Assembly: GCA_951406725.2 (NCBI GenBank)
Contig: OX597819.1
Span: 101,928,001 to 101,992,000 of the forward strand
Length of the DNA: 64,000 bases
Direction of reading: 5' to 3'
DNA from: Octopus vulgaris
Lineage: Eukaryota
Both the position numbers and the translations under genes were made by a program. Under the pieces are notes generated by a model. It was given only the letters and a program-made list of their open reading frames with translations. It had not been told where the DNA came from and made no database searches. Numbering within the stretch: position 1 is the first letter of the stretch; every line of letters starts with the position of its first letter. Positions 16,560-62,600 of the stretch are shown here, piece after piece.

Positions 16560-16757
16560 TTGGCGATATTTTTCATCCGTCTTCCTTTTCACTTGGACTT
16601 TCCTCCGTCTCCTGACGAACAGCTTTGCTCGAAACGTAAAACTGCCTTTCTTTCCTCCCCTGAGCGTCTGCTAAAAAATTGCATATACCACGTACTCACG
16701 TTGTTATTTTTTCTTGTGTTTGTTCTTCGCCTTTTTTTGGTGGGGGGGATTTACTAC
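16560..16757 (+). mobile_element. Penelope-like terminal fragment with degenerate ultra-minimal HHR
   Basis: CTGACGA (16612) - ACAGCTTTGCTC - GAAA - CG - TA - AAAC. Helix I is disrupted, and the fragment ends in (TA)n. A related decayed motif lies on the minus strand near 28900-28940. Confidence 0.5.
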
Positions 16758-16924
16758 ATATATATATATATATATATATGTATATATATATATATATATA
16801 TAGACTGTGCATCATCTTTAAAGAACTTTAATGAACTTTGGAAATCTGTTTATGTTACTTAATTATCTACATTACTTCATGAGTATAGCCTCAACCACTA
16901 AGATGTCTAGAGAACTCACATGTA

Positions 16925-17015
16925 TTTTAGCTGATGAGTACGGGACACGTTTATATGCTGCAATTTTTGCAACTTTTAATAAAGCCTGTCTTTGTATGAA
17001 ACGATTGTACTAAAA
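16925..17015 (+). ncRNA. Type I minimal hammerhead ribozyme, canonical core
   Basis: TTTTAG - CTGATGA - 60-nt helix II (GTAC...GTAT) - GAAA - CGATTG - TA - CTAAAA. Helix I is 6 perfect bp. The host fragment is flanked by TA tracts on both sides. Confidence 0.8.
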
Positions 17016-17189
17016 ACTTATCCATTCTTGTTGCTTCTTTCTCGTGTATATATATATACATATAAACATATATATGTATATCTATCTCTCTCTCTTTATA
17101 TATATATATATATATATATATATAAATATAAATTTGTATGTTTGTGTGTGAGTGTGTATGTACATATGTAGGCATGTACAATTAACTCC

Positions 17190-17517
17190 TGTGAAGGCGC
17201 GAGGCTTAGTGTTTAGGGCATCCGGCTCACGATTGTAAGGTCGTGAGTTCAATTTCCGTCGACGCGTTGTGTCCTTGCGGAAGACATTTTATTTCACATT
17301 GATCCAGTCCACTCAGCTGACAAAAACGATTTGTACCTGTATTTTAAAGGGCCGGCCTTGTCACACTCTGTGTCACGCTGAATCTCTCTGAGAACTACGC
17401 TAGGTATACACGTGTCTGTGGATTGCTCAGTCACTTGCACGTTAATTTCACGAGCAAGCTGTTCCGTTGATCGTATCAGCTGGGACCCTCGTCATCGTAA
17501 CCGCCAGAGTGCTCCCC
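17190..17517 (+). mobile_element. tRNA-derived SINE (family D; head and core shared with the 23232 copy)
   Basis: Head GGCTTAGTGTTTAGGG...GAGTTCAATTTCC and CCAGTCCACTCAGCTG core. Imperfect TSD ACAATT(AA/CT)CTCCT. Confidence 0.8.
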
Positions 17518-17949
17518 ACAATTCTCTCCTAACCCAGTTTTTATCATTATATATTAAGACATTTAATTTTCAATAGAATTGCCCCATCTAACTGCTGTAA
17601 AAAGATATAAGGGTAGTTACGAAACACATATGTTGCATAATATGCACGATGTTCCTCTTTCAAGCAGCTATAGCAGTCAACTACCATTTCATTTATTTAC
17701 GAACTTGACTATCGCATAATAACCAACAGTTGTTGCTTTGGAACTGGAATTGTATTGTATAAGCCTCTAAGTAGAATTTTCTGTCTCAATACGGGATGAA
17801 GAGTACTAGAGGTATTATTTAACGAATTTTAATAATCAATTACCACGTCTAATCAATAAATATCCGAACTGTTACCATAGTAACAAAGTTAAAGCATGCA
17901 GATTAAAACCGTCAACTCTGTTGTCCATGCGCACGAAGTTTTAACGTTC

Positions 17950-18245
17950 TAGCTTACTTCCGCTATTTACAGCAGTGCTTGGCAGGAACGTGTGTAGCGT
18001 GTAATTGTCGCATTGGCAATGACAGAGAAAGTTTTTATGTCGACACCTGCTCAGAAGCCTTCAAAAAATTACAGAAAGTGTATACAGAGGAGTGTATGAG
18101 CGGCACACAAGTATACGAGTGATACATACGTTTCCAAAAAGGCCGCAAAAATCTCGATATTGACGAACGTTCTGGGAGGCCTGCACCCAGCAGAACTGAG
18201 TTAAAACATCGCAGAAGTGGGGCAGCTTTGAGGGGAATCGTCGAA
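17950..18245 (+). mobile_element. Mariner 5' fragment
   Basis: SEAFKKLQKVYTEECMSGTQVYE*YIRFQKGRKNLDIDERSGRP, a mariner N-terminal HTH. Confidence 0.72.
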
Positions 18246-18249
18246 TTGT

Positions 18250-58955: not shown

Positions 58956-60186
58956 GCATACATACATACAAACTAATACACACACACACACACACACATA
59001 TAAATATATATATACAATAGGCTTCTTTCAGTTTCCGTCTACGAAAACCTCTCACAAGGCTTCGATCGGCTCGAGGCTATAGTAAAATATACTTGTCCAA
59101 GGTGTCACGCAGTGGGACTTTACCCGGAACCATGTGGTTACTGAAGCCACTCCTGCACTTATATATATATATATATAAAGAGAGAAGGGGCGAGAAAGAG
59201 AGAGTTACATACATATATTTATGCATATGTATTTACGCACACATGTACATGGATATGTGTGTATGTGTACGTATACGCAGAAATGTATAAAAAAGCAGAA
59301 AACATATGTCATCGTATGCTCTATATAATATACACGTGTTTCGGTATATTACTGCCAGGATTGATTATTGGCTGTTGAGAATTTATACAATCTTGTTAAC
59401 GCACTTTTTCGGTGTTTAAGCATAAAGTGCCACATAGTTTCTTTGTATTTTATTCAGCTTTTACGTGGTTCATATTCCAAACCCTGGTTTATTACGTAGT
59501 TTGTTGCTCTTCGTCGTAACACACTATAGTAGTGAAGTGCGGGATTTACTACAATAGCTGAAATGTGTTTGCGTATAGCACTTTATAGTACATATGTGTA
59601 TGAGTATGTATTCGTGAGTTTGTGTGTGTGTGTGTGTGTACACAAAAGTAAAGATCAGATTATTAGTAATATTAATAATAAACTATAATATTAGCAGCAA
59701 ATCGACAAGGACACATATTTTCTTGCGTGAATATGCATTTATTTTTCTTTGCCTGGGAAACAATAAAATTCATCTGTTATTAATTTGGGGCAAGAAAAAC
59801 TGCTGTAATATATTATATGCGAAATATAAAGTCAACTAATATTCTATGGATAGTCTTGCTAGGATGTAGGGTGGAGCACTACAGGATGCAAGAAACAGTT
59901 GGATATAAATGGATATATTTATAAGCATATATATATTTATATGTATGAATATAGAAATATATATGTACATACATACATATATATATACATGTGTGTGTTT
60001 ATGTGTGTGTATATTCATAAATTAAAACTGTGAAACATAGTGATGAAAAAATGAGATTTAAGATTATATCTTGGCTAAAATAATTGAGTTACGTATTCTT
60101 TTGTTTAAGTCTCAACTTTCATGAGAATGTATGAATAAATAAATATGGTGAAATAAAATATTTAGCCTATTTGTGATTGCTGAATT

Positions 60187-60545
60187 TATTATTATTATTA
60201 TTATTATTATTATTATTATTATTATTATTATTATTATTATTGTTGTTGTTGTTGTTGTTGTTGATGTTTTGTTGTTGTTCTTGCTGTTGTTGTTGTTGTC
60301 ATCATATTGTTCTTGCTATTATTCTTGTCGTCGCTGTTGTTTTTCTTGTTGGTGTTTTTGCTTTCGGCGTCGTCGTTGACGTTGCTTTCGCCATTGTTGT
60401 TGTCGCTATTATTATTATTATTATTATTATTATTATTATTATTATTATTATTATTATTATTATTATTATTATTATTATTATTATTATCATTATTATTATC
60501 ATTATTGTTATGATTATTATTGTTATTATCATCATCATCATTATT
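60187..60545. repeat. (ATT)n/(GTT)n trinucleotide block
   Basis: Read directly from the sequence. Confidence 0.95.
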
Positions 60546-60840
60546 AAGTCAGTGAGCTGGCAGAATTGTTTCCACGTCGAGCAAAATATTTAGTAGCATG
60601 TCTTTCGACTCTTTATTTATGGAGTTCAAATCCCGCTGATGTCGATTTAGCCTTTTACCCTCTCAGGGTCAACAAGATGATTACTAGTTGAGTAATACAT
60701 GCGATCCCCACCTCAGTTTCCTACAATACAAGTGATACAGTATTCTTACATTTGCTATCACTTCAACATCATTCCGACGTTGGATTCGTTAGGTTCGGTG
60801 TATGGAATTTCACCTGTTCCAGAAATTACCTGCTTAAAAT

Positions 60841-60918
60841 TTCATCTGAAGATGGTGAAATTTATGTTTTTATGTAATCAAAAAAATATATATATCTACT
60901 GAAACAGCTATCGTAAAT
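60841..60918 (+). ncRNA. Degenerate minimal hammerhead
   Basis: TTCAT - CTGAAGA - 48 nt - GAAA - CAGCTA (one change from the palindrome CAGCTG) - TC - GTAAAT. Confidence 0.45.
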
Positions 60919-60966
60919 CTTTAGCGCCATTTGAGTTCTCTTCACATATATGTGTGTGTGTGTTTA

Positions 60967-61371
60967 GGATAACCACTAGGTGGATACCCAATATGCTAGA
61001 AGATCACGTACGATCTAACTACAAAGAGATGCAGAATTTAGCGCGCCAGAACATAGACATTTGAAAATAACCCCAATGTAATCGGTGGAGCTAAGCACAT
61101 GTTTTATAAGAACAACTAGTGTTTAGTTTTACAAATTATATTGAATTGGAACGATCGTACTGACGAGTCTGCGGACGAAAAAATTACGTAATTTATCGGT
61201 AATTGACAAAACCGGTCGACGATTAATTTTTGATTTTTATATATATTCATCTGTCTTGCCCGCTTATGTTGTGGTGTTAGCTAAATTTCTCTAGAGAACA
61301 TTCTTTTTTTTGTAGTTAGATTCGTATGTGACCTTCTTCTAGCACATTGGTTATCCACCTAGTGTTTATCC
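60967..61371. mobile_element. Inverted-end element containing a degenerate hammerhead (61154-61223)
   Basis: Arms of about 60 bp (GGATAA.CACTAGGTGGATA.CCAAT...CTAACTACAAA). Internal ATCGTA - CTGACGA - GTC...GAC - AAAA - CCGG - TC - GACGAT. Confidence 0.7.
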
Positions 61372-62129
61372 ATAATATACGCATGTATTGAAATTTTTCT
61401 GATTTTTCAGATTTTTTATATATGCTAGGCTACTGGTTTTAATTTGATATTAATTAAATTAATATTCAATTTATCACCCTCGTAATTTAAATTATATATA
61501 TATATATATATATATATATATTACCTGATAGACACAGTACGTGTTTTTATATGCTACTAATAGTTTCATATGTTGAGAAATCCTTCAAACATATTCACCA
61601 GGCACAAACCACGAACTAAAATTGAATAAGAGAAGTAGCATATAGAAAATGTAGAAGTTTAAAACAATTTAGTACCGAAAAACACGTATTTTGTCTATTA
61701 AATAATATTTATCTCTTATCAGATGGAGTACTTTTTGTTTATCTTACCATCACGAAGCAGTTGATTACACGCACACACACATAATTATGTATGAATGTAT
61801 GTATATATATATATATATATATATATATATATATATATTCATACACACACAGGTATGAGTGAGCAATGAAAATTGTAGCACTCAATATACTTGGTTGGAG
61901 TTACATGTATTAAATACTTTCATTCTCTTCCGGACAATTTCATATTAGGTGAACACGTAGGATACATACACTTCATCGGATGTTCGGGGACAGAGTAGAG
62001 AGTTTCAAAGAAACTTAGACGGACGTTTTGTTGTTGAAGTCTCTGTAGGTCAGTTCAGTTCACGTGATTGTAATGCAATTAACACAACATTTGTTATTTG
62101 CTATAAGTTTGAAGTCCACTTACTGCGCA

Positions 62130-62600
62130 TTAGATGTTGGTAGAGTGTTCAAAGAATATGGTTTAAATATGATTGTTACCACCTACTCGACAAAGGTTGA
62201 ATTCCTAGACGTAACTCGAAACTGCCGGACGAGCAATTTTGATCCCTACAGGAAGTCCAATGACAAGGCAGTTTGTTTATACACAATTTAACCTAGTCAG
62301 ATATAATTCGTAATCTATTTGCTGTTATCAGCAATCTCTCAACGGACACAGAGATCTTCAATAGGACCGTGCCACTATAAAGAAAACCATGCCACTATAA
62401 AGAAGAGTGGTTCTAACGACACAAGTATTGCAGAAGAATCCGAGGGGAATTTCAAAGATTTCCATTCAACCTAGAATTTTTTTACTGATATCGGTAAGAG
62501 CTTGTTAACATTACTTAAAATCTATTTCCTAAGAACTCATAGATATAAACTCTTCAAGTTGCTGAAAGTCAAATTAAGTTACGCTCCAAACATTGTACGG
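62130..62600 (+). pseudogene. Decayed Penelope-like element ORF (RT thumb/linker)
   Basis: VFKEYGL...KVEFLDVT...DPYRKSND, IIRNL...TEIFNR and TDIGKSLLTLLK.YF..THRYKLF...VKLSYAPNI follow the PLE consensus order FLDVTL..PYRKPN / EIFN / TNIGK.FL.L..KHFP..H..KIFN...VK.SYS..PNI. Confidence 0.72.

Follow-up and report, generated by a model that had tools for sequence, protein, structure and literature searches.

Diverse type I hammerhead ribozyme motifs in probable Penelope-like element copies of the Octopus vulgaris genome

A 64,000-nt stretch of Octopus vulgaris DNA (contig OX597819.1:101928001–101992000, labeled G000:C6; hereafter, the window) from a 2.80-Gb assembly of 227 contigs carries sequence-unrelated repeats with the conserved pattern of type I hammerhead ribozymes (HHRs). 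An earlier note, made from the sequence alone, had listed ten such motifs and ascribed them to (TA)n-associated mini-elements related to Penelope-like elements (PLEs). We consider it likely that the motifs are type I HHR sequences in the pseudo-long terminal repeats (pLTRs) of many PLE families, which comprise Hydra- and Neptune-type elements and non-coding derivatives, and that their copies, which end in (TA)n, were made by the endonuclease (EN) and reverse transcriptase (RT) of the elements.

Hammerhead motifs at the locus

The features of the window that bear on this reading are the following:

12074–12376, plus strand: old HHR repeat family (12-kb family), with CTGAAGA at 12199 and GAAA at 12222; CC at the cleavage site of the window copy, TC and a 6-bp helix I in the consensus.
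16540–16758, plus strand: family A, an element of ~230 nt with core 16612–16638 and its 3' end in (TA)n; classical minimal HHR with helix III CG and an extra A after A9; in the decayed window copy, helix I has lost its 5' strand.
16802–17046, plus strand: family B, short end (a 3' end truncated on its 5' side) of a very young PLE that is Hydra-type by its motifs; core 16931–17009, helix III CGATTG.
19947–20162, plus strand: family C, fold-back insertion with core 20024–20053; inverted short-end arm ~19947–20017, long-end arm 20017–20162; core mostly the C4 variant, helix II GNRA-capped, helix III CTCAGAG.
20175–20370, plus strand: family D, 3' end of a young PLE that is Neptune-type by its motifs; core 20226–20255, fixed U3/A8/C13.
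22098–22628, both strands: family E, inverted 3' end of a PLE that is Hydra-type by its motifs, between two (TA)n tracts; short-end arm 22098–22263 (minus, core 22223–22151), long-end arm 22263–22628 (plus, core 22345–22417).
33345–33538, minus strand: family F, old HHR repeat (68–86% identity); core 33517–33404 with a long helix II.
40690–40898, minus strand: family G, old HHR repeat; core 40828–40733, consensus CTGACGA..GAAA CGATCG TT.
51566–52874, both strands: family H, 482-nt non-coding head-to-tail unit, U3 core variant, both outer ends in (TA)n; long-end arm 51566–52025 (minus, core 51860), short-end arm 52024–52874 (plus), with a core at 52206 predicted to cleave after 52253 and one at 52688 predicted to cleave after 52735.
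60777–60957, plus strand: family I, old HHR repeat; core 60846–60912, consensus CTGAAGA..GAAA CAGCTG TC.
60957–61492, plus strand: family J, HHR repeat that includes a small part in inverted orientation (60957–61027); core 61160–61217; consensus core canonical (GAAA CCGG TC), window copy G12A.
61521–61700 (upstream boundary approximate), minus strand: motif K, CTGGTGA..GAAA CTATTAG TA; core 61601–61555, ending in (TA)n.
62142–62381, plus strand: decayed Hydra-like RT fragment (thumb region).

The descriptor for type I HHRs required CUGAnGA, a helix II of up to 100 nt, GAAA, a helix III of 2–10 nt, UH and helix I. It returned three perfect-core matches in the window and nine with at most one mismatch: 16931, 20024, 22345, 52206, 52688 and 61160 on the plus strand and 22223, 51860 and 61601 on the minus strand. 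The corresponding figures were 0 and 0–1 in 12 local dinucleotide shuffles, and the reversed window had none. Five of the ten listed copies pass the descriptor (16931, 20024, 22345, 52206 and 61160). Those at 16612, 33399, 40729 and 60841 fail it, two of them (33399 and 40729) lying on the minus strand with cores at 33517 and 40828, and the copy at 20226 shows three core changes that are fixed (U3, A8 and C13).

Each listed site was also searched against the genome; the best 40 of 15–2747 candidates per search were scored and 10–30 loci per family were aligned for consensi. All ten sites proved to be dispersed repeats with a family consensus of the HHR pattern. Because the consensi restore this pattern, the decayed window copies count as HHR families as well, and the claim of HHR grammar at ten sites stands for the families though for only half of the window copies. 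The full type I core (CUGAnGA/GAAA/UH and three helices) is present in the consensus of families A, B, E, F, G, I and J and of the 12-kb family. Core departures are found in C (C4), H (U3) and D (U3, A8 and C13), and motif K is a single copy with one mismatch. Blastn detected zero similarity among 11 sites at E ≤ 0.01, as expected of sequence-unrelated elements. Furthermore, helix I shows compensatory changes among related subfamilies (TTTTAG/CTAAAA, GTGCAG/CTGCAC and TTTCGT/CCGAAA, counted by eye). The elements have complementary helix I strands of their own, as had been proposed, except that at 16612 this is true of the family and not of the window copy, which lacks the 5' strand.

We also identified HHR motifs beyond the ten listed: the old family at 12074–12376 on the plus strand (67–78% identity) and the single copy at 61521–61700 on the minus strand. 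Decayed PLE RT pieces had been proposed at 12 and 62 kb. The first yielded no Pfam match in six frames of 11100–12900 and no tblastn match that beat the reversed control, and the stretch is instead an eleventh HHR family. The remnant at 62 kb, by contrast, matches Hydra-type RT (tblastn E = 4e-5; best reversed-control E, 0.065), and the relative L334 has RT and weak EN matches. None of these motifs is captured by the Rfam hammerhead models, which gave 0 matches in the window at the gathering score and none at E ≤ 10 in 19980–20300. Among the matches listed from an e-value scan of the window with Rfam (150 of 370), nearly all were microRNA models on microsatellites, which are abundant across the window (TA, CA, ATAG and AAT).

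Abundance and diversity in the genome

A blind sample of eighty 10-kb stretches taken at round coordinates (800 kb) contained 24 perfect-core HHRs and 46 with one mismatch; its seven controls (the reversed set and six shuffles) contained 0 and 5–12, respectively. In the first 600 kb of the sample, one of five shuffles had given 1 perfect-core match. The HHR grammar is far above chance. The density of 30 perfect cores per Mb (Poisson, 19–45), about one per 33 kb, corresponds to an estimated ~84,000 in the genome (54,000–125,000, an optimistic interval given that matches cluster somewhat); decayed and variant cores are additional to this estimate. The rate of one family per 6 kb given in the earlier note thus describes the window locally but not the genome.

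The blind sample comprised 17 families, 13 of them singletons, with a Chao1 lower bound of 37, and points to dozens of families. Perfect cores from all the sequence used for this count (1.98 Mb) formed 30 clusters, a lower bound for the genome. Two features outside the descriptor recur in these sets: (TA)4 lies within 300 nt downstream of 19 of the 24 blind-sample matches (background, 22%), and 20 of the 30 cluster representatives have C at position 15.2. The picture of a diverse, (TA)n-targeted population that includes inverted 5' copies and is missed by Rfam is borne out. A minimal-HHR subfamily with U at core position 6 (CTGTTGA/CTGTCGA/CTGTGGA) also recurred in the blind sample (L176, L198 and L400).

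Carrier elements

Three of the families run upstream into PLE open reading frames (ORFs). Family E leads to an RT with a DKT motif plus, at the C terminus, a GIY-YIG EN that lacks CCHH and carries CxxC..E..N..CxH, with EN matches in 9 of 30 loci. Its RT-EN linkers are long and Asn-rich, it has RWL instead of RWK, and at locus L031 the long-end sequence continues directly into a 5' untranslated region and start codon. Of four extended loci of family B, whose copies are 99–100% identical, three lead to an EN of Hydra type that has CxCX5C (CKCRIKSKC) and CxxC..E..N..CxH; these extensions end short of the RT. Family D leads to an RT matched by Pfam RVT_1 (E 7e-8), a linker of the form CX4CxxC and, at the C terminus, a GIY-YIG EN with CCHH, as read from one near-complete, frameshifted copy (L242) and an EN end in L241. 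By these motifs, E and B would be Hydra-type and D Neptune-type PLEs. We call family E Hydra-type only, short of outright membership in the Hydra clade, because it lacks the CxCX5C linker. The Naiad clade, which is characterized by an N-terminal EN and the lack of a canonical HHR, was excluded, since E, B and D have a C-terminal EN and HHRs and the E RT has DKT. Pfam RVT_1 fails on the Hydra-type RT.

Because their families run into PLE ORFs, the window copies at 22345, 16931 and 20226 are ordinary 5'-truncated ends of ORF-bearing PLEs. This corrects the proposal that all the elements are mini-elements; of the others, the one at 52206 is non-coding in the 30 loci of its family that were examined, and the one at 16612 may be a fixed-length derivative. 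Linkage to RT and GIY-YIG ORFs is full for E and D and limited to the EN for B. Most of the 25 loci of family A share a 5' boundary ~90–100 nt upstream of the core and two extend further (by eye), so that the family looks like a fixed-length derivative with a mostly fixed 5' end. A Neptune-type ORF (L108) and a Hydra-type RT piece (L104) do lie upstream of family A copies, but we treat them as separate insertions because a TA tract intervenes. Family C consists mostly of short fold-backs, a few of which reach a longer parent (by eye).

The CxCX5C linker has been proposed to guide TA targeting. Copies of family E without the linker were seen at L031:4929–6008 and L243:4781–5758, yet 75 of the 81 arm ends of this family abut TA.

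Insertion ends and inverted pairs

Adjacency to TA tracts is a weak signal within the window, where 55% of random positions lie within 300 nt of (TA)4. It is strong at the family level: besides family E, the 3' ends abut TA in 33/33, 28/29 and 69/82 cases in other families. Two fixed 3' ends, each followed by TA, occur in every young family downstream of the predicted cleavage site. Relative to that site, they lie at +57–68 and +213 in E, +41 and +150 in B, +75–84 and +116 in D, +29–42 and +108 in C, and +147 and +249 in H. Of 108 inverted insertions, 104 combine a long end with a short one; about half would be expected to do so if the ends were chosen independently. The rule holds in every family counted: 24/24 classifiable pairs of H (29 pairs, 5 with an unclassifiable end), 21/23 of E, 12/12 of B, 10/12 of D and 37/37 of C. 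The pairing suggests twin initiation, in which both ends of the cut TA tract would prime separately on the RNA.

Under the PLE reading, an element-encoded EN/RT would cut both strands of a TA tract, and synthesis of complementary DNA (cDNA) would start from a pair of internal positions, both fixed and both downstream of the ribozyme. The broken target ends would prime separately, the distal site serving one of them and the proximal site the other, after which the resulting pair of 5'-truncated cDNAs would be joined head to head. With copying begun shortly downstream of the HHR, a copy could be very short and still keep it, which may also be why lone HHRs are so dense. The HHRs would cleave poorly alone and need either a dimer, formed through the palindromic helix III, or an element protein. 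The RNA of family H would likely be processed to a unit-length or circular form and copied for more than one round by the enzyme of a putative partner PLE.

Distinct HHR families are stacked in one TA tract at L108, at L104 and in the window (16540–17046 and 19947–20370). TA arrays are, therefore, repeated landing sites.

A 482-nt non-coding family

The 30 loci examined for family H contain no ORF and no extension past a circularly permuted unit of 482 nt, and arrays reach at most 3.4 units among the best 40 of 1660 candidates. Divergence is 0.8% between the arms of one locus, 1.1% between tandem units and 2.3% between loci. Variants present in at least three loci are concordant in 69 of 84 tandem and 59 of 81 inverted comparisons, as opposed to 434 of 5605 between loci; thus, the parts of an insertion all derive from a single sequence variant. 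The simplest explanation for a new variant that occupies each unit is a step through RNA of unit length or in circular form, the other options being conversion or homogeneous source arrays. The circular fold is predicted to be stable (z = −6.2 versus 60 shuffles), and the core has U3 in 82 of 84 unit reads. The family is retrozyme-like and probably spreads via an RNA circle formed by putative self-cleavage.

In family H, each of the two 3' start sites comes after a CCTCAT..AA(A)TT motif that is similar between them and might signal initiation (window 52385–52400 and 52483–52502). Assembled contigs of four runs cover family H, and two of them, from one study, begin at 52253 (these are contig ends, not RNA ends). 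Contig 31 of run X5 (depth 3), a run of presumed RNA status and without matched DNA, has about eight A>G changes in 136 nt (52638–52773), a cluster resembling A-to-I hyper-editing of an inverted-repeat transcript. Contigs of runs X1, X2 and X15 contain a family H relative with CC at core positions 3–4 (window 52206–52207), so a sister subfamily exists.

Neighboring features

Inverted 378-nt pieces of the RT 3' end of a long interspersed nuclear element (LINE), 99% identical, flank a TA tract at 50219–51141 and 51028–51483. We take this element to be CR1-like by its motifs, and it also adjoins family E in L031. Tc1/mariner transposase remnants lie at 44973–45620 (Pfam HTH_48, E 0.001) and 49116–49672.

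Ribozyme activity and alternative explanations

Helix III alone is predicted not to fold, and its intermolecular duplex (−1.7 to −11.1 kcal/mol, predicted) fits a dimer model. Lunse et al. in 2017 reportedly described dimeric PLE HHRs. Several observations weigh against PLE families with functional ribozymes as the source of the motifs. Copies that start at the cleavage site number only 2 of 296 exact copies of the 23 nt downstream of it in family H (~0.5 expected by estimate, not significant) and 0 of 30 loci in family E. A cleavage footprint suspected from 47 H arms (two exact starts and one near) was discarded as evidence in light of this whole-genome count. The core changes of the young families (C4 in most copies of C, U3 in H and U3/A8/C13 in D) lower or might abolish activity. 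In vitro, HHR mutants had no effect on insertion and the start site showed no strand difference (PMC11167929). The clades are assigned by motifs rather than by a tree, family E is missing the Hydra-clade linker, and an ORF link is established for B, D and E but for none of A, C, F, G, H, I, J, K and the 12-kb family. Furthermore, scoring the best 40 candidates biases the copies toward intact, young ones.

Chance matches in AT-rich, microsatellite-rich DNA could account for some one-mismatch hits, given the background of 5–12 per 800 kb and the many window positions near TA. For perfect-core matches and the ten sites this explanation is refuted, and we give it practically no credence: perfect cores were absent from all seven blind-sample controls, and the listed sites all belong to dispersed repeats with an HHR-type consensus. 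It is a substantial possibility, if well short of an even one, that the HHRs are real but dead or dispensable, passengers retained as part of the pLTR architecture or as a binding signal for a protein close to the RT starts, with all copies (H included) made from linear tandem transcripts that were never cleaved. In 291 of the 296 exact H copies, C17 is retained ahead of the cleavage site, as this would predict, but a re-ligated circle would also give an intact junction. The lack of a 5'-end spike at the cleavage site in E, the insertion of unprocessed RNA by Poseidon_Ac (PAc) in vitro (PMC11167929) and the finding that 8 of 9 Xenopus dimers were uncleaved (bioRxiv 10.64898/2026.07.22.740005) are also in its favor. 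So are the 1,799 exact U3/A8/C13 copies of family D, which has no canonical core (none among its 8 C3 copies); however, U3-A8 is a described compensatory swap (PMC4209133). U4C is weak but viable (PMC3088659), and we found no report of C13 in the accessible literature. Perfect cores retained in 30 unrelated clusters and the covariation of helix I argue against mere passengers, and a variant common to every unit of an H array requires either passage through a bottleneck of unit length or conversion at a high rate.

Inverted arms might also arise by fold-back (self-priming) of one cDNA or from an antisense template, with the short end set by EN trimming, as fold-back and trimming were proposed for rotifer Penelope (PMC3846280). 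The near-identity of arms within a locus (0.8% versus 2.3% between loci) agrees with such a process, as do the arms ending no more than 30 nt apart in 47 of 74 abutting pairs, 34 of which belong to family C, whose reference reaches only 150 nt upstream. However, in 10 of the 74 pairs the short-end arm extends 30–805 nt further upstream than the long-end arm and thus has sequence that the long arm lacks, while the long arm has the tail, so simple fold-back copying is excluded in those pairs. The arms of two E pairs do not overlap at all. We regard this alternative as improbable overall. A more elaborate version of the PLE reading, which we put forward tentatively and consider rather unlikely, makes family H a circular-RNA retrozyme inserted by a Penelope enzyme: a dimeric ribonucleoprotein would open (TA)n, the ends would prime at fixed sites 102 nt apart and the RT would roll for more than one round. 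Asymmetric twin initiation would operate in Hydra and Neptune elements as well and explain the pLTR, tail and inverted ends, and the U3/A8/C13, U3 and C4 cores would be working, protein-assisted HHRs outside the accepted consensus.

Relation to known systems and significance

Earlier publications already cover the HHRs of PLEs, along with their solo truncated copies and inverted pairs, the diversity of the families and the targeting of TA. For example, Craig et al. (2021) listed Hydra-1_Obim of Octopus bimaculoides, a single HHR-bearing element that inserts in (TA)n, whereas we find many families (PMC8557442). The octopus elements share with the Hydra clade the C-terminal GIY-YIG without CCHH, DKT (E), the CxCX5C linker (B) and CxxC..E..N..CxH, as well as (TA)n insertion, a 3'-end HHR and inverted 5' copies of which only one end carries a tail. 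They differ in the tails of ~110–150 nt of B and E, as opposed to the 30–40 nt quoted for PLEs, and in family E, which lacks CxCX5C, carries RWL in place of RWK and yet inserts in (TA)n. The long Asn-rich RT-EN linker inserts are also described in rotifer Penelope (PMC3846280). Family D resembles the Neptune clade in its C-terminal GIY-YIG with CCHH-type residues, CX4CxxC, tail of 32–41 nt and TA targeting but has a fixed U3/A8/C13 core in a young family; its placement follows the motifs of PMC8557442, and Nematis is possible.

The HHRs themselves are close to the minimal HHRs of metazoan PLEs (Cervera and de la Peña, 2014, PMC4209133), which are also type I with a short palindromic helix III, an extra nucleotide (A9/10.1) and the U3-A8 swap, and which likewise occur mostly as solo truncated copies, in opposite-strand pairs 100–700 bp apart and in highly diverse families. 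Here, helix III has mostly 6 nt and helix II reaches ~95–120 nt, and the estimated genomic total exceeds the 2,000–9,000 per genome given there (the descriptors differ). The axolotl has 126,247 HHRs (PMC7229834). A13C on top of U3-A8, as in family D, was not found in the accessible text of PMC4209133. Like non-LTR retrozymes (Cervera and de la Peña, 2020, PMC7229834; Li et al., 2026, bioRxiv 10.64898/2026.07.22.740005), family H is a non-coding head-to-tail unit with one type I HHR each, low GC, a stable predicted circular fold and short arrays, and its unit of 482 nt compares with 170–400 nt in the former source and 51–972 in the latter. It differs from them in its dispersed arrays, fixed 3' ends in TA, random 5' ends and long and short inverted arms. 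These PLE insertion marks point to growth of the arrays by reverse transcription rather than by unequal crossover.

The two internal RT starts that bound the tail, with an HHR upstream, and the cleavage and extension of both AT-rich target strands are shared with PAc in vitro (Frangieh et al., 2024, PMC11167929), which is also a precedent for protein-assisted HHR activity. PAc shows no strand difference in the start, in contrast to the different sites used by the two ends in the octopus pairs. A tail on only one inverted pLTR had been noted qualitatively (PMC8557442; PMC3846280). The counts of long and short pairing, the sharing of variants among tandem H units and the fixed variant cores of young families are additions of the present analysis. 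A 2026 repeat annotation of the octopus lists 31 recently active PLE families, with HHRs unmentioned in its accessible text (PMC13282606). The open-access literature yielded no octopus-wide HHR census, octopus retrozyme or counted long/short rule; the supplements or repeat library of PMC13282606, PMC4209133 and the 2026 preprint may hold some of the families or core variants. We thus describe a large set of a known kind, with extra value in the pairing rule, a retrozyme-like family that bears PLE insertion marks and the variant cores.

Such insertions bear on the part that HHRs play in PLEs and on the origin of pLTRs, tails and inverted ends, which are open questions. Standard annotation would under-call the region, as Rfam misses the window motifs and Pfam RVT_1 the Hydra-type RT. 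Insertions made in nature by several young families number in the tens of thousands in the octopus genome, with exact start sites and a countable pairing rule. Furthermore, it holds natural core variants under active amplification and, in family H, a protein-free substrate that is easily assayed.

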